Assembly (NCBI GenBank): GCA_938009235.1 | Contig: CALLIK010000004.1 | Location: 365,725 to 429,724, forward strand | Source of the DNA: an uncultured Caulobacterales bacterium | GTDB taxonomy: Bacteria > Pseudomonadota > Alphaproteobacteria > Caulobacterales > Maricaulaceae | Length of the DNA: 64,000 bases | Direction: 5' to 3' | Shown here: positions 5,286 to 22,374 of the stretch, piece after piece | Numbering within the stretch: the stretch's first letter is position 1 | Layout: each line of letters begins with the position of its first letter | Program-made: the position numbers and the translations under genes | The notes under the pieces: model-generated | What the model was told of the DNA's origin: nothing | The model's input: only the letters and a program-made list of their open reading frames with translations | The model's database searches: none

Positions 5286-5888
5286 ATGACCGACATAATT
5301 TGCCCCATGTCTGACCTTCTCACAGATATACGTGGATGTACGGCCTGCGCTAGTAGTGTTCCGCCTTTGCCTGTGACACCGAACCCAATCATCCAAGCTA
5401 CAGCCCAATCTAAAATCAGGATCATCGGCCAAGCCCCAGGTGCGCTCGCCCATGCAAGCTCCCTACCCTTTACTGACCCGTCAGGTGTGAGGCTGCGAGA
5501 GTGGTTGGGCGTTGATGAGGCCACCTTTTACACGCCAGACAATTTTGCGATTACCCCAATGGGTTTTTGTTTCCCTGGTCAAGACAACCAAGGCGGAGAC
5601 TTACCGCCACGCAAAGAATGTGCGGTCCTGTGGCAAGACAAGCTCGATGCGGCCCTTCCGAATGTCGAGTTAACCCTCGTCGTCGGGATGTATGCGGTAA
5701 AATGGCATTTGGACGATCACGGTTATCGAAACCTGACCGAGACAGTCAAACATTGGAAAGTCTTCGGCCCCACGTTAATGCCTTTGCCACATCCAAGTTG
5801 GCGCAATAATGGTTGGATCAAACGTCACGACTGGTTCGCCGAAGAACTCGCGACTTTAAAATCCCGGGTGGCTGACATCTTGGCTTGA
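5286..5888 (+). CDS. Uracil-DNA glycosylase superfamily protein
   Basis: 200 aa with a motif-A-like IIGQAPG and a motif-B-like LPHPSWRN. The family number was not assigned. Confidence 0.75.
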   Translation: MTDIICPMSDLLTDIRGCTACASSVPPLPVTPNPIIQATAQSKIRIIGQAPGALAHASSLPFTDPSGVRLREWLGVDEATFYTPDNFAITPMGFCFPGQDNQGGDLPPRKECAVLWQDKLDAALPNVELTLVVGMYAVKWHLDDHGYRNLTETVKHWKVFGPTLMPLPHPSWRNNGWIKRHDWFAEELATLKSRVADILA

Positions 5889-7868
5889 GACGACACGGAA
5901 CCGACCTTTGGTTTTTTGTCCCTTCTTATCAATCGCCGTTAATTCATAAAACCCAGGCGCAGAGGGCTTGAACCTAAACCCGTCACGCGTTTTGTGAATG
6001 GGATCAGAGCCCACATAGAGCCGCACGTCACTTGCTTCGGTTTGAACAACAAGATCAATGCCTTCGGACGCTGCACCAAATACGGATACCGCAATCTCAA
6101 TGTCGTCCATTGGGAATAAGATAACGGGCGCAAATTCTTCGGCGGACTTTAATCGGTCCTGTGTCTGTTGCGGACGATTTACGCGGACGACTTGATCTCC
6201 AACCGCGAGACCATCTGCAATTTTAAACAAGAGCGGCGCAGCTGCAGCGCGGCCCGTAACCCCAGGCCTTGGCCCTCCATCGGGTCGTCCAATCCAGACA
6301 ATAATTACGTAGTCACCAGATACAGCAGCAGCCCAGCTATCTCTAAAACCATATGATGTGCCCGTCTTGTAAGCCACGTCAGGCACATCACGCCCCAAAT
6401 GCATTGGCATCACACCTGCGGGTCTGGGCGCGTCGGCCATAACGCGACGGAGCGCCTTGGCTGTGTCAGCTTGTAAAAGTTCAAACGTGGGTTGCGGCAT
6501 CTCATCGGCTAAGGTCCATTTCAATGGCCCCGCCAGTCCATCATTCGCGATGGCAGTATAGAGCATTGCAAGGTCAGTTGCGCGGAGGCCCGTTCCGCCC
6601 AAAGCCAATGCGAGACCTGCATCTGAGCCATTTTCATTCGGACCGGATTGCGAAGGCGAAGCGCCCGAAGCTCGCAGTGCAGCATCAAGGCGGCGACCTC
6701 CAACATGATCAAGAACACCAACGGCGGGTATGTTCAAACTATGTTGCAGGGCTTGGGCTACTGTAACGTCCCCATAGTAACGTCTGTCAAAATTCTCAGG
6801 GCGATAACTGCCAAATCGACTCGGCGCATCGCGAAGCCGCGTGTCGGGTCCGATAATGCCGTCATCCATACCCAAGCCATAAACAAAGGGTTTTAGTGTT
6901 GATCCCGGTGATCTCACCGCAGCCGTCATATCCAACCATCCGCCATCATGATCGCGCCGACCAATGGCGGCATGGGCGCGAACTTCGCGGGTCTTAGCGT
7001 GAACAACGATTGCCGATGCGTTGACGGGGTGCGGGAGTTTCTCAACTGTGGCGGCCAACTGGTTTTCGATATTCGTTTGAAGATGTGGATCTAATGCGCT
7101 GCGCGTGACTGAGCCCGTCGCCGCCAATTTGCGGGCCGTCAACCAAGCGCGCTGTGGTAGTTTTTCCTTTTTCGAAGGAATAGATACGGTATCAGCATTT
7201 ATATACTCATTAGCCGTGATCAGTTCCGCTGACGCCAAACGTTTCAAAATGCGCCTTCGCCCTATTTTTGCGGCCTGTGCATTTCGGTCTGGCCGTCTGG
7301 CTTCAGGCGCTTGAGGCAAAGCAATCAAGAGAGCGATTTCATCTGGAGCGAGAAACCGTGGTGACTTGCCAAAGTAAATACGGCTCGCGGCATCAATACC
7401 TTCAATATTTCCGCCGTAACTTACGCGGGTCAAATATTGTTCGAGTATCTCTTGCTTAGTATAATGAAGTTCAAACCGTAGTGCCTCAAAGCTTTCGATA
7501 GCTTTCGATTTGAACGTTCGCGGACGCGGTTTGTATTGACGGACAAGCTGCATAGTCAGTGTTGATGCGCCAGATGAAGCTACACCGCTTTGCTTCCACG
7601 TCTTTAACGCGCGCAAAATGGCGGCGCCGTCCACACCCGAATGCGAATAAAACCGCTTGTCCTCAATCTCAATCAAAGCCTCGACAAAGGCAGGATCAAC
7701 AACATCCAAATCGGTCTTGATGCGCCAACGACCATTTTCGACAGTTCGCACATTTAGCCACGTTCCGTTGCGATCCGCCAACACGGGTGATGTCGTGTTG
7801 AGGTCAGCGTTTGAAACAGGCGCTTGCGCGAACCACAGGCCCATCGCAGCCGTAGCTGCAAGCGTCAT
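5856..7868 (-). CDS. pbpC: Penicillin-binding protein 1C (bifunctional transglycosylase/transpeptidase)
   Basis: GT51 motifs EDKRFYSHSGVD and GASTLTMQL; transpeptidase motifs SPGSTLKPF (SxxK) and KTGTS; a C-terminal beta-rich PbpC-type domain. It lies 22 nt downstream of the macroglobulin gene. Confidence 0.9.
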   Translation of the reverse strand: MTLAATAAMGLWFAQAPVSNADLNTTSPVLADRNGTWLNVRTVENGRWRIKTDLDVVDPAFVEALIEIEDKRFYSHSGVDGAAILRALKTWKQSGVASSGASTLTMQLVRQYKPRPRTFKSKAIESFEALRFELHYTKQEILEQYLTRVSYGGNIEGIDAASRIYFGKSPRFLAPDEIALLIALPQAPEARRPDRNAQAAKIGRRRILKRLASAELITANEYINADTVSIPSKKEKLPQRAWLTARKLAATGSVTRSALDPHLQTNIENQLAATVEKLPHPVNASAIVVHAKTREVRAHAAIGRRDHDGGWLDMTAAVRSPGSTLKPFVYGLGMDDGIIGPDTRLRDAPSRFGSYRPENFDRRYYGDVTVAQALQHSLNIPAVGVLDHVGGRRLDAALRASGASPSQSGPNENGSDAGLALALGGTGLRATDLAMLYTAIANDGLAGPLKWTLADEMPQPTFELLQADTAKALRRVMADAPRPAGVMPMHLGRDVPDVAYKTGTSYGFRDSWAAAVSGDYVIIVWIGRPDGGPRPGVTGRAAAAPLLFKIADGLAVGDQVVRVNRPQQTQDRLKSAEEFAPVILFPMDDIEIAVSVFGAASEGIDLVVQTEASDVRLYVGSDPIHKTRDGFRFKPSAPGFYELTAIDKKGQKTKGRFRVVSSQDVSHPGF

Positions 7869-7890: not shown

Positions 7891-10800
7891 TTAAAAATCT
7901 CCGCTTGGGGAAATTTCTAATTGCCCATACTCAGATGTGCCGACACGTGCAGGACGATACATGTCCTCGACAACGGCCCCAGGGAAGGTAAATGTACCTG
8001 CAGTCACCGCGCGGACAACATAGGCCGCCTTAAAGACATTACCCTTTCGGTCGTAACGAGATCGTCGACCCGAGGCGATAAATCTGTCATCTCGAGCTTC
8101 TTGCATATCGAATTTGGACAGCTCGCCGAGGAAACCATACGCCCCTTCACTTCCTGTATCTGCTGGGGTTAGAACAGTTTCAATTTCCAATCCTGCCGGC
8201 AATAAATCCGCGAGTACAACCATTCGATTAGATCTGTAGGTTGATTTAGCTGTGACGAGAATAATAGCACGATCACCGCGTTTGATCTCTGTGGAAATGG
8301 CTTTACCTTTCATGGTGTAGAGATGTTTTTCTACGGTAAAGCCACTGGATATGGCTTCAGGTGCCTGGGTCGGCGTGGAGGTTACGTCGATTGTGATATA
8401 GGCACGCGCGTCGCCCGTGTTTTCTATTGAAGGCTTACTCGCAATGTCGGTTCCGAGTAAATTCGCGGCGCCTTTTTCAAGAGACAGGTTTTTGGTCTTT
8501 ACGCTAACGTCGCCTTCACCAGAGCTAAGTTGCGCCATAGCTCTAATGATATAACTTTTTTCCTGAGTGTTGGTCCTGGATGGCTCAAGTTCTGCCAAAC
8601 CTAAAAGAATTTTCTCAGACACTTCGGCATCTAAGTTATTGCCGCCAATCGCTAAGAGAGCCGCGGCATTGCGCTCTGGCGAACTATAGTAGTTATAATG
8701 CTCTGTTTTAACGTCCAAACTGTCAGCGGCCCGTTTGAAGACAGCTTTTGCTGAGGCTTCGTCTCCTATTTTAGCCAACGCCGCGCCTAGATAAGCCAGA
8801 GAAATTGGGTCAGATATCCGATCCCCAAATGTTTTGTTGAGATAGCGAATACCAGAGGTATCTGCCTCACCCGCTAATGCGACGACATAATGCGCGTAAG
8901 CCGCCCGATTTGCACGCGCAACTTCGGCTTTTTTTTGCGAGTCAGAGTTAGGGAAATATAGATTCAGAGAAGAATGATTTTCCATACGAGAGAGTATTTT
9001 TGCCGCATTTATGGCTGACAACATGCTCTGTTCGTTGACGTCATATCCATTGCGGTCTGCCTCTATGAAGAACTCAGTGACATAAAGTTGGAGCCAAGGT
9101 CTTAAAGCTCTATCGCCCTGACGCCAGAGACCAAACTCTCCGGTCATATCCTGACGTGAGGATAGTTTCGCAATCGCGTCCTGAATACGGGTGCTCAGAA
9201 CTTTGTCCGATGTACCCTTAAACCCTCCGAGTGATTTCACGAACACAAGCGGCATTGCCTTACTGACGGTTTGCTCCGTACATCCATAAGGGTAACGGTT
9301 CAGTGACGCGAGATATGGCGCAACAGAAAGCCCAGGAAGGCGTGCCACGCTCAGGTCAATATCCGCGCCTGTAACACTGTAGCCGTCCATAAGGTCAGCC
9401 TTCAACGTATAGCTTTCGCCAGGTTCGATAGCTTTAATCGTGCGGTTCGTGATGGGCCTATAAGGGGACCGGACTTCAATTGGGTAGTCAGACTGAACCT
9501 TATAATCTTTGGGTCCAGTGATTGACGTTTTCAAATTATAAATCCCGACATCATCGGCATTCAAGGTGACACCCGTTTGGTCCCGCGTTCCTGGCGGAAG
9601 GTCAAACACAGACTCGATTGTTTTCAGCAACCCAACACCTTCAATAGATGTTCGGTAAACACCAGACGCTCCATCTATATTATCAAGCGCGAAGGTTGAT
9701 ACGGCTTGATCTCCAGGCGCGAGGAAACGCGGCAAGCCTAAATTAGCAGGAACAGCGTCCCTCACCTTTAAGGATGTCGACGCACTGCCGATTGACGACT
9801 TTGTCCAAGCCGTCGCCATAAGGCGCAGCTCTCCATTAAAGTCAGGTAGATCAAGCGTGATCACAGCTCGTCCATTTTTCACATCAACAGAGCCTTCAAA
9901 TAATGCGACAGTTTTGGTTGGAACAACAGAGAGTCCTGCGCCGCCAATCCCGTCACCGCCGCTTCGGGTTTTTCCATCGGCTAAGAACGGATTCAGGATG
10001 CGGCTGTAATCATCACGAATATCGAGCGCGAAAGCCTTCTTAGAAAAGAACGCATCAGAGGCATCGGGGGATTTAAAATTGGTCAGAGCTAAGATGCCCT
10101 CATCTACTGCGGCCAAACTCACCCACGCTTTTTCTCTCGCGCCGACGCCCGACAATTCGATTGGGACCTCCACTTGAGTTCGCGGTGACACGCGATCGGG
10201 TGTGTCGATTTTCAAATCAAGTGTTTGAGAAGAACGATCTAAAGCAATGTGAGTAAGACCAACGGCGCGTTTCACGCCTTTGCGTTTTTCAACATCAAGC
10301 GGCGTATAGAGAGTTACCATCGCATAGACGTCATGGCCCCAAGATGGATCATAAGGAATACGAACGGAGGACGCGCCTTCTGGGACATCAACGGTGCGAA
10401 TGGAGCGAACCGTATGGTCGGCAATCACAATATCTCCTCGGCCCGCATAAGGTGCACTCAAGTTTAAAGTCACAGCGCCGCCCGGTTTTGTTGGCAAGTC
10501 TGTTGCGCCAACTAAGATACGGTCTGGCGCATCACTGTCGCTATCACCCCAATTCGACCACCCCACACCAAAGCGATAAGAAGCGGTTTCACCAGTACTT
10601 GTTTTCACGTCCAAACGGTATCGACCCCAATTCAATGATCTTGACCAAACACTTAATGCTTCGGAGCCAATTGCCATTTCACCGCGATCAACAACTGTAT
10701 CTGTTGACTGGGTTCGGTACTGCCAACGATTGCGGGCGCGATACCAATTATAATCACGTCGTTCTTCATTTAGCGTCCAAGTGACCTGAGTAGAGATACG

Positions 10801-12843
10801 TTCACCCTCTGCATCAAGTGCTAGGAGTTCAATCTCAGCGGGTTTCAAACGAGACGCGCGTTCTCCAAATCGAGACTTAAAGCCTACATAGGTGTCTTGT
10901 CCGCGAATGGGGATGAAGATATTTTCTCTAACATATCGTCCGCCTGGTTCCGCGACGCCCGCAATGAATGATGCGCGCAATGGGTGAGAGGATTCTGCGT
11001 CGGATGCAGACAGCTTCACTTTGACAACGGCTTTACCCTCGTCATCTGTTTGCGGAACTTTCAGATCAATAACACGCTCACGGAAATCTTCTTTACTGTC
11101 ACCGAAGTCAAACTCTGCAAAGTCTTTGAACGGATTTGGATCTCTTTGAATTCTAAATTCAGATTCTGTCTCAAGGTTTGACCCTGGCGCGCCATAGTAA
11201 AACTGCGCATCAAGTGTAATTTCGCGCACTTCATCAGGGTGTAGAGTCGCTTGCTCTTCGGGACTAAGTGATAGCTTTAGTCTCTGCGGAACAAAGTCCT
11301 CCACCGAAATCGTTTCGTTGATTTTGGCATCTGTACCTTCAACAGACAGTTCAATGTCCCATTTACCGCGCGCGGCTTGAGATGGCAGATCAATGGATGT
11401 CACATATCCACCTGCATCCTCATCATCGAGCAAACGCGTTAGCTCTTCTACGCCGTCAGGTCGTAAAAGCTTTAGCGACAAGACACGGCCCTCTATCGCA
11501 TGTGCATAGGAATCGCGGAGCAACGCGGTTAAGTGAACGGTCTGCCCAGGGCGATAAATACCACGGTCAGTAAATGCATAGAGGTCGTAAGGCCCCGTAA
11601 CATCACGGCCCTGAACATCCATCACGGAGAGGTCGAGCGGAGCGCGTGACAGATCAAGCACAGCATAATCACCGTCTTCCCCATAAGCCATAATCATACG
11701 CGGTTTGAGCGGGCCAACACCTTCTAAGATCGCATTTTCAAAAACGGCGCGCCCTTGGCCATCTGTAATGACTTCTGCCAATTGTTCATTGTTACTGGCG
11801 ACAAGGTCCAATCGCACGCCAGATTTTAAGCGAGCATCTTTAATAGAGCGCACAGCCACATGAAGCGCGTCTGTTCCGCGATAACTCGACAGCGCAAGGT
11901 CGGTTGAAATAAGCCAGCGAATAGCTTGGGCGCTGCGGCGACGGGAGGTCCCTTCGACGACATGCTCAGCAATAAGAATATAAGCGCCGGGCCCCTGCTC
12001 CGTTATCTTGTCTTGTAAATCAAATGGCGTTTCGACGATGGCGTTGCGGTTTTCTAACACGTCGAGATCACCTGACCAGACTTCAACACGACTAGAACTG
12101 GCCTCATATGTACGTATATATTGACCGGCCGTACCGCCTTCGCCCTTGTTCGGCGAGTGTTGAGACAGAATTCGGTCGTTAACGCGAAACAATTTCAAGG
12201 AAAGTTGATCGACATTCACAGTCTTTAAAACAACCCGCGCGCCTTTTGTTTCAGGGAGAATAATACCTTCGCCTGAAAACCCGACAAAGGCAGGCTTATC
12301 TTCGAAGGTAAATATGACACGTTTGTTTGTCTGTAATGCGTTGCCCTCGTCAGACACGAGTCCTTTAAGGACGTCGGCACTGTAGCTTTGCCCATAGGCT
12401 AAACCCAAAATGCAAATTTTATTGGCCTTAGCATCAAGAGAGAATGGCGTCTTAGGCGTAATTCGGATGAAGGGTTTAAGTTGGGACTCTCTCGTCTCGA
12501 CGAAATCTGAATCAAAAGACAAACAGGCCTGTACGTCCCCATTCTGATCTTGAGTTTCCATTGAGAGGTAATGTAATGGATCGATAGTTGGTTCTTTGGG
12601 GGTTGGGTCGACAACGTCCACGATTGGAGGTTCAACACGCCTTGGAGCCTGCGGCATTCGTGAATCCTTAGATATTTTAGGTATCGCCGCGATAGGGTCG
12701 TCAATGACCACATCTACGAGTTGGGAACGCGCTGTAGTGTTATCACGAGCATTATGCGCGTCTGGAAATAGATGATACCCGACGACCCCCGCAAATATAA
12801 AGAGAAGAGCGCCCGCTAAAAACTTCACTACAGATATGTTCAT
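7891..12843 (-). CDS. Bacterial alpha-2-macroglobulin (YfhM/ECAM-type), membrane anchored
   Basis: 1650 aa with the thioester motif YPYGCTEQ (CTEQ codons at 9271-9282 on the minus strand). It has an N-terminal hydrophobic anchor and is paired with pbpC as in the known A2M-PBP1C operons. Confidence 0.9.
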   Translation of the reverse strand: MNISVVKFLAGALLFIFAGVVGYHLFPDAHNARDNTTARSQLVDVVIDDPIAAIPKISKDSRMPQAPRRVEPPIVDVVDPTPKEPTIDPLHYLSMETQDQNGDVQACLSFDSDFVETRESQLKPFIRITPKTPFSLDAKANKICILGLAYGQSYSADVLKGLVSDEGNALQTNKRVIFTFEDKPAFVGFSGEGIILPETKGARVVLKTVNVDQLSLKLFRVNDRILSQHSPNKGEGGTAGQYIRTYEASSSRVEVWSGDLDVLENRNAIVETPFDLQDKITEQGPGAYILIAEHVVEGTSRRRSAQAIRWLISTDLALSSYRGTDALHVAVRSIKDARLKSGVRLDLVASNNEQLAEVITDGQGRAVFENAILEGVGPLKPRMIMAYGEDGDYAVLDLSRAPLDLSVMDVQGRDVTGPYDLYAFTDRGIYRPGQTVHLTALLRDSYAHAIEGRVLSLKLLRPDGVEELTRLLDDEDAGGYVTSIDLPSQAARGKWDIELSVEGTDAKINETISVEDFVPQRLKLSLSPEEQATLHPDEVREITLDAQFYYGAPGSNLETESEFRIQRDPNPFKDFAEFDFGDSKEDFRERVIDLKVPQTDDEGKAVVKVKLSASDAESSHPLRASFIAGVAEPGGRYVRENIFIPIRGQDTYVGFKSRFGERASRLKPAEIELLALDAEGERISTQVTWTLNEERRDYNWYRARNRWQYRTQSTDTVVDRGEMAIGSEALSVWSRSLNWGRYRLDVKTSTGETASYRFGVGWSNWGDSDSDAPDRILVGATDLPTKPGGAVTLNLSAPYAGRGDIVIADHTVRSIRTVDVPEGASSVRIPYDPSWGHDVYAMVTLYTPLDVEKRKGVKRAVGLTHIALDRSSQTLDLKIDTPDRVSPRTQVEVPIELSGVGAREKAWVSLAAVDEGILALTNFKSPDASDAFFSKKAFALDIRDDYSRILNPFLADGKTRSGGDGIGGAGLSVVPTKTVALFEGSVDVKNGRAVITLDLPDFNGELRLMATAWTKSSIGSASTSLKVRDAVPANLGLPRFLAPGDQAVSTFALDNIDGASGVYRTSIEGVGLLKTIESVFDLPPGTRDQTGVTLNADDVGIYNLKTSITGPKDYKVQSDYPIEVRSPYRPITNRTIKAIEPGESYTLKADLMDGYSVTGADIDLSVARLPGLSVAPYLASLNRYPYGCTEQTVSKAMPLVFVKSLGGFKGTSDKVLSTRIQDAIAKLSSRQDMTGEFGLWRQGDRALRPWLQLYVTEFFIEADRNGYDVNEQSMLSAINAAKILSRMENHSSLNLYFPNSDSQKKAEVARANRAAYAHYVVALAGEADTSGIRYLNKTFGDRISDPISLAYLGAALAKIGDEASAKAVFKRAADSLDVKTEHYNYYSSPERNAAALLAIGGNNLDAEVSEKILLGLAELEPSRTNTQEKSYIIRAMAQLSSGEGDVSVKTKNLSLEKGAANLLGTDIASKPSIENTGDARAYITIDVTSTPTQAPEAISSGFTVEKHLYTMKGKAISTEIKRGDRAIILVTAKSTYRSNRMVVLADLLPAGLEIETVLTPADTGSEGAYGFLGELSKFDMQEARDDRFIASGRRSRYDRKGNVFKAAYVVRAVTAGTFTFPGAVVEDMYRPARVGTSEYGQLEISPSGDF

Positions 12844-13091: not shown

Positions 13092-13958
13092 ATGTCTTTT
13101 AAAAAACTTGCTTTAACGGGCGGTGTTGCCGCTTCTTTGATGGCGTCTACGGCCTATGCATCCGTAATCGATCGTCCTTTCTTTCAAGTCTTAGGTGTCG
13201 TGGTCGTCTGGGGTGCAGATGACGCTGCATCTGCAGCACCTGTCGTCTCCGATTTCGTCTTACTGACCCCCGCATCTGGCAGCGCTGGCGCAGACCTTAT
13301 TGCAGGTAATGTAAGCACTGTTATTACAGGGTCTTTGACACCTGTTGCAGGCGGCTCAACTGCGGCCACATCAACGATTGACCCTATTACAGGCGAAACA
13401 AGCACAGCGACTTACGCAGACGCAGCGGGTGCTGGTGCAGGACTTCTTGATGCAACAGATACATTGTCTGCTTTCGGTATTGATGGAAATACAGATGTAC
13501 AAGCTTTGACAGCTTCACACACAAGCAGCTTCTTTGTCGCATCTAACGCTGCATTCGACATCTACGCTGTTGCTGGAAACCTAACTAAGACGGGTGACTT
13601 CTCTGCGGACGCAGACATCGGTCTTGAAGACATTACACTGTCTATGTCGCTACAAGCTGGTGCAGCTCAAACTGTCGGTACGCTAAATTATGGCGCTAAC
13701 TCACAGGTACCAGGTACATTTGATAATGGCCTCGATGTTGGTGAAACACTCGATAACCTAACGACGGCTGTTGCTGGCGCAAATGGCTTGAAAGTCTTTG
13801 ATGGTACGCAGCGTACTGCGGCTACTCCAGGGTCGTTGGCTGACCAGTCTGTTCGTTTCGACAACGTCTACGACTTCGGTGGACCAAACGGGTATGACCT
13901 TTCAATGGGTTCAGGTACAATTTCTGCCGACGTAACTTACACAATCTTCGTCCCATAG
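13092..13958 (+). CDS. Secreted acidic Ala/Gly/Thr/Ser/Asp-rich protein of unknown family (paralog of 21123-21968)
   Basis: Sec signal MSFKKLALTGGVAASLMASTAYA|S. There are no Cys residues and the composition is low-complexity but non-repetitive. It shares co-linear blocks with the 21123 protein: LLDATDTLSAFG, NTD, SHTSSFFVAS, TGDFS and YDLSMGSGTISADV. A rho-independent terminator follows. Confidence 0.7.
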   Translation: MSFKKLALTGGVAASLMASTAYASVIDRPFFQVLGVVVVWGADDAASAAPVVSDFVLLTPASGSAGADLIAGNVSTVITGSLTPVAGGSTAATSTIDPITGETSTATYADAAGAGAGLLDATDTLSAFGIDGNTDVQALTASHTSSFFVASNAAFDIYAVAGNLTKTGDFSADADIGLEDITLSMSLQAGAAQTVGTLNYGANSQVPGTFDNGLDVGETLDNLTTAVAGANGLKVFDGTQRTAATPGSLADQSVRFDNVYDFGGPNGYDLSMGSGTISADVTYTIFVP

Positions 13959-14015: not shown

Positions 14016-14046
14016 GGCCGCTCCCTCGGGAGTGGCCTTTTCTTTG
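14016..14046 (+). terminator. Rho-independent terminator after the 13092 gene
   Basis: GGCCGCTCC-CTCG-GGAGTGGCC forms a 9-bp stem with one G.U pair and a tetraloop. It is followed by TTTTCTTTG. Confidence 0.75.
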
Positions 14047-14050
14047 CGTC

Positions 14051-15946: not shown

Positions 15947-17986
15947 ATGCAGAGGATTGACGTGTCAGATATAACTAAGAAAATTTTCTCTATTGAACCG
16001 GTTGATGCGGTTAAAGATGTGGAACCTAAGAGCCCAGACATCATTAAACCGGTCAGTAGGCCATCTCTGAGATTGACGGCTGTTGCGCCGAAAGAGGATA
16101 TTGCCACCGAGAAAGTTCCCGATTTTGTGACGCGAGAGGAGATCAAGCCCTTAACCCGGTCACCCGCTCCTGTTTGGGAAGAGGCTGAAACCAGGTCTAA
16201 AGGTTGGGTTTTTTGGTCAATTATAGGATTCAGTATCCTATACATCGCAGCAATTGGTTTGTTTTTTGGCATGCCCTTACTAAATATTGCGCCAAATTTA
16301 CTTACAATAACGGGCCTTGTTCTCCTGCTGATCCTACCCATTGTGCTCCTAATAGTGCTGGGCACAGCCCTTCGAAACCTAGGTCGGCTAAGTCAACAGA
16401 CCCTAAGGTACGCACAAGCTGCAGAAATTCTTGTCACACCAGAAACAGAGGCGCTAGGACGCGCGACAACACTGGCAGGAGCGATCCAAACTGAAATTTC
16501 AAAATTCAATCAACAACTCGAAACGACTGTAGGCGCCTTAAAAAAGGTTGAAACCTCTGTCTCTCTTGAGAGCCAAGCTCTCGACGCTGCGGGGTTGCAA
16601 CTATCTAGTCGCTCCGAAGATGTAGGACGCAACCTAACTTTACAAAGACAAGCCCTCGAAAGCATATCTGGGACATTTGATGCCCGCATGGGAACATTAT
16701 CAGCTCAAATTACTGAGACGAGCAAAGAATTAGAAAATGTCTGCGTCGAAGCAGAAACCCGTCTGTCAAAGGCTGGCGGAAGCTTGATGGAAACAACCGC
16801 TCAAACTGAGACCCATATTACTGCAAGTACGAAACAAATTACTGAGGAAATTGCTGCATTAGGTGAAGTAAACAGCAAAATCGAAACAACTTCAGAGACC
16901 ATGAGTTCAGATTTAGTAAAATCAGCGGAAAAGCTTCAAAAGCTTCAAACAAAACTGGATGAGCGCGCAGAAGCACTAGAAATGCTAAGCACAGGTACAG
17001 TAAGTCAGATTACAAACCTTCAAACAACACTCGACCATGGCAATCAAATGCTGTCTGATTTTCAATCGGCGGCTGATCTAAGGGAGTCTGAAATGACACA
17101 CCTTTATGATCGCTTGTCTCTTCAACTTAAAAAATCTGAAGACGACACCCTTGCGTCTCAAGGACAAACCGCACGTGTCGTTGAGGCCAATCTTTCGCAA
17201 ATGCGTCGAGATTTTGGACAAATGGAAACGGACCTAAAAACCCTTCAGGTTAAGCTAAATAATCTTAGAGAACATGCGGACGAATTACCTGCGCCCGAAG
17301 TCAAACCTTCCCGGTTAAATCTTACTCCGTTATCGTCTGATTTCCCACCTGTAGAACCTCCCCGTCAAGCCGTTAAACGTGAGCCACTAGGTCTAAGGCA
17401 TACACCCTTCGACCTTGATGCTGATATGGAGCTTGAAATACCAGCTGACGAAATCGCTGACATTATTCCTGAGGTTAACCCAGACGTTATTTCACGGCCA
17501 GGACAACCGGTTTCGTCAAAAAAGGGATTTGGTCGCAGAAATGACAAAGAATCTAGCGGATGGAAGTGGCGCGATATGTTGGGCGGATTAGAGAAGCCAG
17601 GATCTGTCCCTGGAGCGGCAAACCTTACATCACCTCAGACTGCAGACTCTACATCAATCAATATAGTTGAACGCCTCAACGCCTTAAAGTTATCACCGTC
17701 AGCTTTTGTTGATGAAGGTACAGTCATTGACGCAACACAAGCTAGAATTAACGCGGGCGCGGCAGGTCTTGCTTCAGTCGTGGTCGAACGTTTGCCAGAT
17801 GCCGTTGCGCATCTGAAGGGCCACATGTCTGTGAACATGAGCCTCGCAAACGAGGTCAAACACTTCGCTGACAGTTTTGCCACTACAATCGCGAGCACCC
17901 CGCCTACAGCTCCAGCCCTGAGGGCGGCTTTAGGTTCACCTGACGGAAGAGCGTACCTTCTGTGTGAAGCCGCTCTAAAGGGGTAA
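15947..17986 (+). CDS. Membrane-anchored long coiled-coil protein of unknown function
   Basis: 679 aa. The N-terminus is charged, followed by two hydrophobic segments (WVFWSIIGFSILYIAAIGLFFG and LLTITGLVLLLILPIVLLIVLG). About 300 aa of Q/E/T/S/L-rich heptad-like sequence follows, then a Pro-rich linker and a conserved-looking C-terminal globular part. Confidence 0.8.
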   Translation: MQRIDVSDITKKIFSIEPVDAVKDVEPKSPDIIKPVSRPSLRLTAVAPKEDIATEKVPDFVTREEIKPLTRSPAPVWEEAETRSKGWVFWSIIGFSILYIAAIGLFFGMPLLNIAPNLLTITGLVLLLILPIVLLIVLGTALRNLGRLSQQTLRYAQAAEILVTPETEALGRATTLAGAIQTEISKFNQQLETTVGALKKVETSVSLESQALDAAGLQLSSRSEDVGRNLTLQRQALESISGTFDARMGTLSAQITETSKELENVCVEAETRLSKAGGSLMETTAQTETHITASTKQITEEIAALGEVNSKIETTSETMSSDLVKSAEKLQKLQTKLDERAEALEMLSTGTVSQITNLQTTLDHGNQMLSDFQSAADLRESEMTHLYDRLSLQLKKSEDDTLASQGQTARVVEANLSQMRRDFGQMETDLKTLQVKLNNLREHADELPAPEVKPSRLNLTPLSSDFPPVEPPRQAVKREPLGLRHTPFDLDADMELEIPADEIADIIPEVNPDVISRPGQPVSSKKGFGRRNDKESSGWKWRDMLGGLEKPGSVPGAANLTSPQTADSTSINIVERLNALKLSPSAFVDEGTVIDATQARINAGAAGLASVVVERLPDAVAHLKGHMSVNMSLANEVKHFADSFATTIASTPPTAPALRAALGSPDGRAYLLCEAALKG

Positions 17987-20299: not shown

Positions 20300-21136
20300 A
20301 TGTTTCGCTCTCGAACGCTTTTGGCTTTGGCCTGTAGTTCTGCCCTAATTGCAGCCATATCATACTCGCCCTTAGCGAAAGCTTTTGGCGTAGGCGTTCA
20401 GCCTTCAACAGTAGAAATGACGATAAAGCCCGGTGACCGACAGCGGCAAATTGTTACGGTCGGGAATGTTCACAAAACTAAGACCATTAGCCTGACTATG
20501 GGTTTGGCCGATTGGTCCCTAGATGAAAACGGCAAACTGATTTTAGACGCGCCAGGTGACACAACTCGGTCTGCGGCCGAATGGGTTCGTTTTTCGCCTG
20601 CTGCCGTTACCTTAAAACCAGAAACATCTCAGGATATTACGGTCGAGATCGATGCGCCTTATAAAATCAAAGAAAAGGGAGATCATCGTTTTGCTCTTCT
20701 AGCAACGACCATGTTGCCAGAGCTTGATGATCGCGGCGAAGTCTCTGGTGTTTGGAACCGGTATCAGCTGGCCTCACTCTTCTATCTTACGCTTACGCCC
20801 TCCAAAAGCCTCCCTGAGGTCACAAGTGTGGCTTTGAGTTCTACTGAGCCTGGGCTTGTAACTATGCAGATCAAGAATGATGGCGATGCTCATGCCCGAT
20901 TGCAGGGCACAGCCGTTTTGAAGGACAACGAAGGCGAGGTCTTAGCAGAAACACCTCTAAACGCTGTCATACTTGATGGCGGCAAACGTACCTATAACAT
21001 CACCCTTAAAGACATGGCTGAATTAGACACAGGTGACTACACGATCGATTTTGATCTCAACAATACATTTGCGCCGCAGAATAAGTTTAGAGCTACAAAT
21101 GTTCCTGTTGATTCACTGAATTATGTCGCGAAGTAA
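20300..21136 (+). CDS. Secreted two-domain Ig-like beta-sandwich protein (PapD-chaperone-like / DUF916-like), function unknown
   Basis: Signal peptide MFRSRTLLALACSSALIAAISYSPLAKA|F. The first module is VQPSTVEMTIKPGDRQRQIVTVGNVHKTKTISLTM...WVRFSPAAVTLKPETSQDITVEIDAP. The second module is LVTMQIKNDGDAHARLQGTAVLKDNEGEVL...GDYTIDFDL. It overlaps the next gene by 14 nt. Confidence 0.7.
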   Translation: MFRSRTLLALACSSALIAAISYSPLAKAFGVGVQPSTVEMTIKPGDRQRQIVTVGNVHKTKTISLTMGLADWSLDENGKLILDAPGDTTRSAAEWVRFSPAAVTLKPETSQDITVEIDAPYKIKEKGDHRFALLATTMLPELDDRGEVSGVWNRYQLASLFYLTLTPSKSLPEVTSVALSSTEPGLVTMQIKNDGDAHARLQGTAVLKDNEGEVLAETPLNAVILDGGKRTYNITLKDMAELDTGDYTIDFDLNNTFAPQNKFRATNVPVDSLNYVAK

Positions 21137-21968
21137 GATAATATTATTGGCGGGGGTTGCCCTCGTCTCTATTGCCTCAAACGCACAAGCTAGTTTTTTG
21201 GATACAGACTTCTGGTGCCGCACATATGGTTGTGCGGTAGTCCATGACGGCCAAAATTACGACATCTACGATAACTATCTATTTTCCACGAGTTCATGTT
21301 GCGTAGCTGTTGGAGGGCAAATGATAGGTTTTTACCTGAGAGCAGACAACACGAATATAACAGGAGAGATAGGTGGGAGTGGCTCAAATGGCCCAAACTC
21401 AGACCAGAGCTTCATGTTGGGTATATCCCAAGACGGTGAGAACATTAGTCTATCTGGAAATGATGATGGCGACGGATATCTCGATGCAAGTGATACATTT
21501 GGCGCATTTTCACTTAACCCGAACACAGATATCCTTCTAGATGGCCCTGGAAAATCTTACTCGCACAGCTTCTTTATATCGTCCCGTAATTCTGAATTTA
21601 GCCTTAGAGCCTTGGCTTCAATTGCCACTGTGACAGGCGATTTCTCTAGTACCATCCAACTCGGCGACATCAAATTGACTCCTAGCATTTCAGCGTCAGG
21701 TAATGACGGTGGATTTCAATATGGCGCAAGCGCGAATACGGCGAATATCATGATTGTAAGCGGTGTGGATGACCTTGGCGACCTCACAGGTATTCCTACG
21801 CAAATTATGAATTTTGGTCGAGCAGAAGGCATTCGCAACGGTAATGGCGACATTAATGAGCAAGCCATCCGACTCGACTTCCTCTACGAAATGCCAAACT
21901 ATGATCTCTCAATGGGTATTGGCAGTTTGAACGTAGATGTTGCGTTTGATTTCTACCGCGAGAATTAG
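21123..21968 (+). CDS. Secreted acidic Gly/Ser/Asn/Asp-rich protein, paralog of 13092-13958
   Basis: Signal peptide MSRSKIILLAGVALVSIASNAQA|S. It has a 4-Cys N-terminal segment. Shared blocks with 13092: YLDASDTFGAFS, NTD, SHSFFISS, TGDFS and YDLSMGIGSLNVDV, at nearly the same residue numbers. Confidence 0.7.
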   Translation: MSRSKIILLAGVALVSIASNAQASFLDTDFWCRTYGCAVVHDGQNYDIYDNYLFSTSSCCVAVGGQMIGFYLRADNTNITGEIGGSGSNGPNSDQSFMLGISQDGENISLSGNDDGDGYLDASDTFGAFSLNPNTDILLDGPGKSYSHSFFISSRNSEFSLRALASIATVTGDFSSTIQLGDIKLTPSISASGNDGGFQYGASANTANIMIVSGVDDLGDLTGIPTQIMNFGRAEGIRNGNGDINEQAIRLDFLYEMPNYDLSMGIGSLNVDVAFDFYREN

Positions 21969-21969
21969 G

Positions 21970-22374
21970 CTAACCGAACTCATGAGGTTCTTCAGTTTTG
22001 CCATCGTGTAAGACTTTTGGTTTTACAAACGCAGTGAATATTGCTGCCATGCCAAGTATAGCTATTGCCATAGATACAGCATCTCTTTCAATCATTCGAA
22101 AATACATCACGCCGCCGATTACAGCGGCAAAAACACCCACACAAATACTTGTCCAAAACTTACGGTCATAAACACAGTAAGTTTTGCCAGAAGCAAGTTT
22201 GCCCTTAAGGTCATCAGATAGAGCCATCACAAAGACTTTTGGTGTGAATGCAAAGTATAGCAAAAACAAAGCTACTACCCCAAAAAAACTAGGGTCAAAA
22301 AAGTAAGCGTAAGTGATACAAAGTACGCCTACGAAGACGCAGGAGAGTGACCCAATCAAGAATGCTTTTCTCAA
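21970..22374 (-). CDS. Small polytopic membrane protein (last gene of the suf-strand array)
   Basis: 134 aa with about 4 hydrophobic segments. It needs a TTG start that overlaps the sufA-like stop (TTGA). No motif was recognised. Confidence 0.45.
   Translation of the reverse strand: MRKAFLIGSLSCVFVGVLCITYAYFFDPSFFGVVALFLLYFAFTPKVFVMALSDDLKGKLASGKTYCVYDRKFWTSICVGVFAAVIGGVMYFRMIERDAVSMAIAILGMAAIFTAFVKPKVLHDGKTEEPHEFG

Follow-up and report, generated by a model that had tools for sequence, protein, structure and literature searches.

The overlapping genes A and B at 20300..21968 of the window (the whole stretch analysed, 64,000 nucleotides of contig CALLIK010000004.1 from an uncultured Caulobacterales bacterium) belong to a conserved envelope gene module of marine Proteobacteria. 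The module has four components, one A, two B-type paralogues (B and B') and a large partner, C8. A is a member of an unnamed family that lies between the WxLIP proteins of Gram-positive bacteria and the PapD-like chaperones, nearer to WxLIP, and it is a bona fide member of neither. Our preferred explanation, held tentatively and at slightly less than an even chance, is a Sec-dependent chaperone/subunit system of the donor-strand type, in which A would be the periplasmic holder of B' and B, with C8 as the outer-membrane partner for surface display or assembly. The explanation builds on what was shown, namely the genes themselves with their signal peptides and conservation, which components form the module, how A folds and where it stands in its superfamily, and the domains of C8. 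The features of the gene pair are as follows.

20300..21136, plus strand: gene A, 278 amino acids, secreted, two immunoglobulin (Ig)-like domains, WxLIP/PapD-like superfamily (open reading frame list, AlphaFold2, Foldseek, profiles)
20300-20383, plus strand: signal peptide of A, amino acids 1-28, cleavage between PLAKA and FGVG (read from the sequence)
20396..20797, plus strand: domain 1 of A (amino acids ~33-166), counterpart of DUF916/WxLIP_PGBD and PapD_N (AlphaFold2 strands 36-165; hhalign collinear with WxLIP and FimC)
20711..20761, plus strand: domain-1 loop of A, amino acids 138-154 (LPELDDRGEVSGVWNRY), proposed partner-binding hairpin (invariant columns, low model confidence, profile alignment)
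20813..21133, plus strand: domain 2 of A (amino acids ~172-278), counterpart of DUF3324/WxLIP_HBD and PapD_C, with an invariant N193-G195-AHARL motif (AlphaFold2, alignments)
21123..21136, plus strand: overlap of the A stop and the B start, 14 nucleotides, fits translational coupling
21123..21968, plus strand: gene B, 281 amino acids, secreted, acidic, orphan β-rich family (open reading frame list, alignment)
Start of gene B, plus strand: signal peptide of B, amino acids 1-23, cleavage between NAQA and SFLD (read from the sequence)

An earlier note on this DNA, made from the sequence alone, had described two open reading frames with Sec signal peptides and a 14-nucleotide overlap. Both reading frames were confirmed, and their signal peptides (basic n-region, hydrophobic core and AXA site) are conserved in the 33-sequence alignments of the two families. 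Litorimonas-type loci show an overlap geometry identical to that of the window. Conservation extends over the whole length of both proteins, with a mean column identity of 72% in the A family and 67% in the B family. Mature A has an isoelectric point (pI) of 4.9.

A was modelled with AlphaFold2 from the 33-sequence alignment. The model (predicted local distance difference test score, pLDDT, of 81) consists of two β-sandwich domains, as the note had read from the letters. Foldseek comparison with the PDB placed Enterococcus faecium WxLIP structures (9i1y and 9i25) at ranks 1-3, with E 7e-11 to 6e-10 and a template modelling (TM) score of ~0.41-0.45 over ~250 columns; 9i25 is a WxLIP 'bound to long WxL'. 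The next matches were the pilus chaperones CsuC, CfaA, EcpB, FimC, CupB2, Caf1M and PapD (E 2e-9 to 6e-7; TM normalised to target 0.46-0.59), including chaperones solved in complex with subunits. The likeness of A to PapD and to DUF916-DUF3324 proteins, which the note had also proposed, is thus right at the level of fold and, by profiles, of remote homology.

A hidden Markov model (HMM) search with the A family profile found 1,636 representative clusters at E ≤ 1e-3, 240 of them at ≤ 1e-10. Comparison with Pfam, a check named in the earlier note, left A itself below the thresholds, but among 87 distant relatives of A 31 matched WxLIP_PGBD (DUF916; best E 6e-12) and six matched WxLIP_HBD (DUF3324). 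PapD_N and PapD_C were absent from the Pfam families matched by these 87 relatives. A profile of distant A members (A5) aligned with EfmWxLIP1 (PDB 9i1y) across both domains at E 2.6e-13, and with EcpB at 3e-3. Members of the superfamily are mostly 260-300 amino acids long, and there are many tandem duplications of 510-580 amino acids, which carry the whole two-domain unit twice. Among the members P0396-P0510, P0430 has 2,972 amino acids and 13 matched stretches, and P0399 is fused to a dockerin.

For profile-profile comparison with hhalign, references were taken from annotated records: E. coli K-12 provided eight chaperones, six ushers and 14 pilins, and Gram-positive plasmids provided five WxLIPs and seven WxL domains; the WxLIP alignment held six sequences. 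Two profiles represented the A side, A6 (window protein A plus 28 intermediates) and a cleaned distant set of 50-56 sequences, from which members individually matching WxLIP or a chaperone and members with a C-terminal helix had been removed. A6 matched WxLIP at 84% (E 8e-6, 228 columns), EcpB/E at 75% (E 2.4e-5, 107 columns) and the classical chaperones at 23% (E 9e-4, 203 columns). The cleaned distant set matched A1, the family profile of A, at 100% (E 3e-47, 229 columns), WxLIP at 98% (E 5e-13, 230 columns), the classical chaperones at 93% (E 3e-7, 153-198 columns) and EcpB/E at 88-91% (E 1e-6 to 3e-6, 163-165 columns), with pilins (13%), ushers (1%) and WxL domains (0.5%) as controls. Compared directly, WxLIP and the PapD-like chaperones gave below 1%, and EcpB/E against the classical chaperones, run as a control, gave 54%.

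The loop of amino acids 138-154 is the sole low-confidence stretch in the folded part of the A model (pLDDT <50, at 140-142 and 149-153), and in the alignment it is almost invariant (R145, G146, S149-N153). It is directly followed by a G1-like amphipathic strand, YQLASLFYLTL (amino acids 155-165). In the profile alignments, loop and strand correspond to the domain-1 hairpin of WxLIP and to the F1-G1 loop plus G1 donor strand of the chaperones. According to AlphaFold2 predictions, the WxLIP hairpin is disordered when WxLIP is free, and in the complex it forms a strand filling the gap of the WxL β-sandwich (PMC10599100). By analogy, A may complete or cap its partners via amino acids 138-165. In the mechanism that we propose, A, B and B' would be exported by Sec, and in the periplasm A would use strand complementation to bind its paralogous β-sandwich partners B and B', with the hairpin (138-154) and the G1-like strand (155-165) completing or capping the partner sandwich. 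WxLIP is predicted to act in this way on WxL, and PapD-type chaperones act so on pilins. C8, placed in the outer membrane, would export, anchor or assemble B'/B on the cell surface, where B' might polymerise.

The earlier note spoke of a pair. A tblastn search of B against the window showed that the module has a second B-type paralogue there, B', which is 29% identical to B over the full length (E 4e-12).

13092..13958, plus strand: gene B', 288-amino-acid secreted paralogue of B (tblastn, open reading frame)
Start of gene B', plus strand: signal peptide of B', amino acids 1-23, cleavage between ..TAYA and SVID
13161..13220, plus strand: N-terminus of mature B' (SVIDRPFFQVLGVVVVWGAD), where conservation within the B/B' family is highest (alignment)

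Mature B has a pI of 4.05, consists of G, S, T, N, D and A to ~54% and has four conserved Cys, in agreement with the acidic, G/S/T/N/D-rich partner of the note. B' is Cys-free, with ~62% of these residues and likewise a mature pI of 4.05. The full-length alignment shows several common blocks, namely a hydrophobic strand-like stretch following the cleavage site (AS[VIF][IL]D.PFF.VLGVV.VWG), LDA.D....F, HSF[FY].[AT]S, QS[VI]RF, YDLS.G.G and a C-terminal strand. B' is better conserved across bacterial classes than B, and its N-terminal segment, nearly identical between Alpha- and Gammaproteobacteria, is a candidate donor or edge strand (including SVIDRPFFQVLGVVVVWG). B was modelled with a pLDDT of 67 overall and ~85 in the C-terminal half. 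Neither B nor B' had a match above threshold in Pfam or NCBIfam, and B had none in the PDB by sequence or profile; on these searches, B appears to be an orphan family.

The distribution of the module was examined in 53 genome-derived loci and in 39 metagenomic loci that are more distantly related (33-67% identical to the query), the metagenome scan being made with a five-sequence alignment. B lies immediately 3' of A in 73 of the 74 loci with room for it, so that the two families do co-occur as a conserved unit. The sole exception is L098:7896-8744, an A homologue (282 amino acids) of a high-GC organism without an adjoining B, where a convergent maf-like gene comes next. Of 72 loci, 25 have B' immediately 5' of A, and a further 11 have it at another place in the locus.

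When the neighbouring open reading frames were clustered, nothing besides the module was universal, and the C8 family stood out. C8 is a secreted all-β protein of 1,000-1,140 amino acids. In Robiginitomaculum, Maricaulaceae and Fretibacter, B', A and B on the plus strand stand between the alpha-2-macroglobulin (A2M) gene and C8, both on the minus strand, and guaA, rsmB and guaB come next after C8. The order in Methylococcales and related gammaproteobacterial loci is C8 B' (B'') A B on one strand and in an unrelated context. Between the two classes, identity is 42% for A, 34-37% for B and 30% for C8. The transfer of C8 together with B'-A-B while gene order changed speaks for a functional tie between them. 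The earlier note had correctly seen no usher, sortase, secretin or ATPase within 10 kb, and rpoH and suf as flanks, and had concluded that the pair has no assembly platform. This usher-less claim fails because C8 is consistently linked to the module elsewhere, in Alphaproteobacteria and in Methylococcales; the note had itself named such linkage beforehand as a point that would count against it.

By Pfam, C8 consists of a signal peptide, two Cu_amine_oxidN1 domains, a ~500-amino-acid region without family match, two SdrD_B/CarboxypepD_reg β-sandwiches and a Pro-rich tail. No Cys occurs in the central region, which is rich in strands and ends with ...GLxLxGxFxF just before the C-terminal domains. 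Fimbrial ushers are laid out as an N-terminal domain, a ~500-amino-acid barrel and two C-terminal β-sandwiches. The layout of C8 mirrors this order, and by architecture C8 may be an usher-like platform.

Two further observations concern the gene neighbourhood of C8. The Methylococcales-type loci L050:7705-9472 and L069:2762-4538 carry two tandem B'-type genes 5' of A and hence three B-family genes each, and in L050 the gene divergent from C8 encodes a Crp-family regulator. Among Alphaproteobacteria, C8 is co-operonic with the gene of a small secreted protein, c13 (~120 amino acids when mature, four conserved Cys, C-terminus ..ELPEC, no match in Pfam/NCBIfam), which overlaps the C8 gene start (L024:15066-15533, minus strand; L054:9576-10007, plus strand; 10 other loci). 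It was not seen in the Methylococcales loci.

C8 is not encoded inside the window. A C8 homologue of 1,120 amino acids (P0327) and a protein with a 100% match to window A (P0001) both come from 582,411-bp contigs, and relatives likewise pair A and C8 on contigs of equal size (220,583; 120,563; 2,739,246; 204,898; 235,692 and others). In the Litorimonas/Hellea lineage, C8 homologues share contigs with A. The closest relative carries A-B and C8 ~46 kb apart on one contig, with C8 still beside guaA, and the window from 57.9 to 64.0 kb is collinear with the flank of that gene. Very probably, then, the genome of the window encodes C8 ~46 kb downstream of B, ~4 kb past the 3' end of the window and on the minus strand. 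The ancestral cluster is broken up in this lineage: the gap of ~6.3 kb between B' and A holds genes for Hpt, a CPBP protease, a 679-amino-acid protein, a 347-amino-acid open reading frame and rpoH, and the ~46-kb gap between B and C8 includes suf genes.

Several results weigh against the preferred explanation. A gave nothing above threshold in Pfam and NCBIfam (best fn3_5, 22.5 bits against a cut-off of 27.6). At E ≤ 10 it matched neither WxLIP_PGBD (PF06030) and WxLIP_HBD (PF11797) nor PapD_N (PF00345) and PapD_C (PF02753), and no match was found in the PDB by sequence or family profile (A1, A2). In hhalign, A1 alone gave 12% with WxLIP, 0.7% with six E. coli chaperones and 3% with EcpB/E; because it reaches neither group, the link of A to WxLIP and to the chaperones appears to be transitive and at superfamily level. 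In PapD/FimC, Arg8 and Lys112 are the conserved residues of the chaperone cleft that anchor the subunit C-terminus. They are not conserved in A, where P/T-T-V aligns with T-R-V of FimC and a gap lies opposite the K of ..RIKLYYRP, in an hhalign alignment of low confidence (23%). A stands outside both families proper because it lacks these residues and the PapD Pfam signatures as well as the transmembrane helix and N-terminal motif of WxLIP; as a bona fide PapD chaperone it was rejected on the missing PapD Pfam match and the A1 values of 0.7% and 3%. Some distant relatives weakly resemble 'choice-of-anchor T' surface proteins and a few have C-terminal hydrophobic helices, and this resemblance suits a surface scaffold as well as a periplasmic chaperone. 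Strand complementation by A, for its part, is suggested by homology and analogy.

The partners add to these points. Of the subunit-like character that the earlier note gave to B, a weak fold match to the TasA fibre stood (8aur_A, E 4e-4, 203 columns, TM 0.29-0.34), the sole significant one in Foldseek. Similarity to WxL domains or pilins was not detectable: B/B' gave ≤0.7% with the seven WxL domains and 6% with the 14 E. coli pilins in hhalign, no W-x-L motif occurs in either sequence, and Foldseek of B against the pilins PapE, CfaB and FimG gave E 0.06-0.25. B was accordingly rejected as a WxL domain and as a chaperone-usher pilin on these profile values. C8 lies within the locus in 12 of the 34 loci having ≥6 kb on each side. 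Its central β-barrel is putative; C8 had no match to Pfam Usher and its central region no link to the PDB. In hhalign C8 gave <1% with ushers, a test made uninformative by the failure of the positive control EcpC (3%). C8 was rejected as a sequence-level usher, Pfam showing only Cu_amine_oxidN1 and SdrD_B and the hhalign control being insensitive. An amphipathic-strand score, which could not separate its centre from soluble β-domains, was dropped as barrel evidence. An usher (PF00577 with PapC_N/PapC_C) was found neither in the window nor in the related loci.

Some of these points would suit a surface-display complex of the WxL type, stable and non-polymeric, with A exported together with B and B' and staying attached to them at the cell surface, as a Gram-negative equivalent of a WxLIP with its two WxL partners, and with C8 as an outer-membrane-anchored adhesin or docking stalk. 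A is nearer to WxLIP than to PapD, one A goes with two B-type proteins as in WxL clusters, and SdrD_B repeats are typical of adhesin stalks; the 'choice-of-anchor T' resemblance and the C-terminal helices of a few distant relatives point the same way. We nevertheless consider such a complex unlikely, as A is not anchored to a membrane or cell wall, neither a WxL motif nor detectable WxL homology occurs in B and B', no outer-membrane route for a folded A-B complex is evident, and display based on peptidoglycan would be implausible outside an outer membrane. The fact that C8 accompanies B'-A-B into another bacterial class with changed gene order and strand, and is retained in genomes with a split cluster, argues against a self-contained, usher-less chaperone-subunit pair without a dedicated platform, under which the linkage of C8 would have no functional meaning and be a matter of inherited synteny; B' moreover makes the module more than a pair. 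This explanation, which we regard as improbable, would account for the position of A-B alone between rpoH and suf in the window and in close relatives, for the 12 of 34 well-flanked loci that contain C8, and for several long metagenomic loci with no C8 within 8 kb of A-B.

Least of all do we favour a purely periplasmic module without a surface structure, serving for example envelope protection or metal/ligand handling tied to alpha-2-macroglobulin; we think it very improbable. It would explain why B' is always divergent from the bacterial alpha-2-macroglobulin gene in Alphaproteobacteria. This adjacency is, however, limited to one alphaproteobacterial lineage; neither the Methylococcales loci nor Fretibacter show it, and so it looks like inherited synteny; a functional link of the module to alpha-2-macroglobulin was rejected on the same ground. 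Weak Pfam matches of Ig-like A relatives to CopC and FixG_C-type domains might also be cited in its favour, but these are generic Ig-fold matches and far weaker than the WxLIP link. The donor-strand chaperone/subunit system remains our preferred explanation. A wider version of it, which we judge doubtful, would see in the module an unrecognised donor-strand chaperone/platform pathway of diderms, a third branch beside chaperone-usher pili and WxL, with the A family as an evolutionary bridge between WxLIP and PapD and with orphan, possibly TasA-like B'/B assembled at the cell surface via C8, which would then be an outer-membrane protein of a new type.

The module shares features with three known systems and differs from each. 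A canonical WxL cluster consists of a single WxLIP together with two WxL proteins (Hassan et al., 2023, PMC10599100), and WxL/WxLIP have been reported 'almost entirely' from Lactobacillales and Bacillales; the WxL/WxLIP literature that we examined links them neither to PapD nor to Gram-negative bacteria. A resembles WxLIP, its top Foldseek match, in its two-Ig-domain fold, in remote sequence homology across both domains and in the conserved, disordered domain-1 hairpin at the equivalent position. One two-domain protein likewise goes with two paralogous secreted partners, although for B/B' this is an analogy. Unlike WxLIP, A has a diderm proteobacterium as its host, stays below the Pfam thresholds and lacks the NQIDKxxxYFDLK motif and the C-terminal transmembrane helix that all plasmid WxLIPs have: its C-terminus (...VPVDSLNYVAK) follows directly after domain 2, with no hydrophobic segment or anchor. 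The WxL motif is missing from B and B', and a putative outer-membrane protein of ~1,100 amino acids is linked to the A module in place of LPXTG proteins. A record labelled Klebsiella pneumoniae, plasmid CP069367.1, contains at 101758-102474 a gene that is not annotated and shares 75% identity with Enterococcus faecium WxLIP1; the record may be mislabelled or chimeric, or may hold a real Gram-positive insert.

With chaperone-usher pili, above all those of the archaic and alternate classes (CsuC-CsuA/B, EcpB, CfaA-CfaB; classical FimC/PapD), the module shares a periplasm-targeted protein of two Ig domains with significant fold matches, the profile similarity of the A family to classical chaperones and EcpB/E, and a flexible loop followed by a G1-like amphipathic strand. 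A is also co-operonic with secreted β-sandwich 'subunits', and the domain logic of C8 (N-terminal domains, ~500-amino-acid β-region, two C-terminal β-sandwiches) is comparable. In contrast to these pili, the module has no PapD_N, PapD_C or Usher Pfam matches, A lacks conserved Arg8/Lys112, the barrel of C8 is putative, and mature B and B' (~260 amino acids) are much larger than pilins, which have ~150 amino acids in an incomplete Ig fold plus an N-terminal extension, with no detectable pilin homology and insignificant fold matches. The donor-strand-exchange biofilm fibres of the TasA/camelysin type (PDB 8aur; Bacillus TasA, a jellyroll fold) provide the sole significant fold match of B, obtained with the pLDDT 67 model. 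Both are secreted β-sandwich proteins of ~230-260 amino acids with a conserved N-terminal strand directly past the signal-peptide cut; B differs in having no Peptidase_M73 Pfam match and no SipW or TapA nearby, and TasA needs no two-domain chaperone.

Holders with two Ig domains that complement a strand are an already known type; what is new here is that the partners are orphan. PapD-like chaperones are regarded as a hallmark of Gram-negative chaperone-usher pili. Because a large, unnamed proteobacterial family matches both WxLIP and PapD by profile, while these do not match each other, our comparisons point to a common origin of the two-Ig-domain 'holders' that bind surface proteins by strand complementation in Gram-positive and Gram-negative bacteria. 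If C8 is indeed an export or assembly platform, the module would represent a new envelope assembly route using orphan subunits. The gene set B', A, B and C8 can be tested in cultivable marine hosts (Litorimonas, Robiginitomaculum, Fretibacter).

The findings also bear on public annotation. In a collection of 5.8 billion proteins, A has 391 and B 231 homologues, essentially none of them named; all named members of the A and B families are called 'hypothetical protein', and NCBIfam has no model for the A family. The cluster representatives now labelled 'hypothetical' or 'SdrD B-like', ~400 for A, 230 for B and 160 for C8, could be annotated jointly. The public NCBI annotation of B (P0155) comprises 215 amino acids and begins at an internal Met, thereby omitting the first 66 residues, which include the signal peptide, the N-terminus of the mature protein (SFLDTDFWCRTYGC) and the four invariant Cys and are conserved family-wide. 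Because these upstream residues are conserved, the 281-amino-acid overlapping form is the real one. The orthologue records P0193, P0222 and P0229 are likewise annotated from an internal Met (215 amino acids; window 21123-21320 for the corresponding start). Probably the start codon of B has been mis-called in the public records of the window gene and of several orthologues, where it is to be corrected.

Close relatives come from Litorimonas, Algimonas, Hellea, Robiginitomaculum and Fretibacter (Alphaproteobacteria, Maricaulales). The rpoH-type sigma factor flanking A-B in the window has an RpoH-box-like QKKLFFNLRR, and suf genes form the other flank. An origin of A-B by horizontal transfer or as an island was rejected, the G+C content not being anomalous. 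A lipoprotein reading of A, suggested by a Cys in the signal peptide, was also discarded (no lipobox, Cys not conserved).

The remaining features of the window lie around these genes. A strong terminator-like hairpin downstream of B' suggests that B' is transcribed separately in this genome.

14016..14047, plus strand: terminator-like hairpin, 9 bp stem with 7 G-C pairs, then a T-run, 58 nucleotides past the B' stop (consensus scan only)
15947-17986, plus strand: 679-amino-acid protein without Pfam match, with conserved counterparts between B' and rpoH in 17 related loci
7891-12843, minus strand: bacterial alpha-2-macroglobulin of 1,650 amino acids (MG2, bMG3, bMG5, bMG6, bMG10, bait-region), divergent from B'
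5856-7868, minus strand: 670-amino-acid open reading frame directly downstream of the alpha-2-macroglobulin gene, conserved beside it in 11 loci
21970-22374, minus strand: 134-amino-acid open reading frame with several hydrophobic segments

By eye, the 679-amino-acid protein is hydrophobic in an N-terminal region, and its long middle part is helix-like and of low complexity. The 134-amino-acid open reading frame, which has no family match and is conserved in only three related loci, lies on the strand opposite to B; it ends 1 nucleotide past the stop of B and shares 4 nucleotides with the next gene of the suf cluster.

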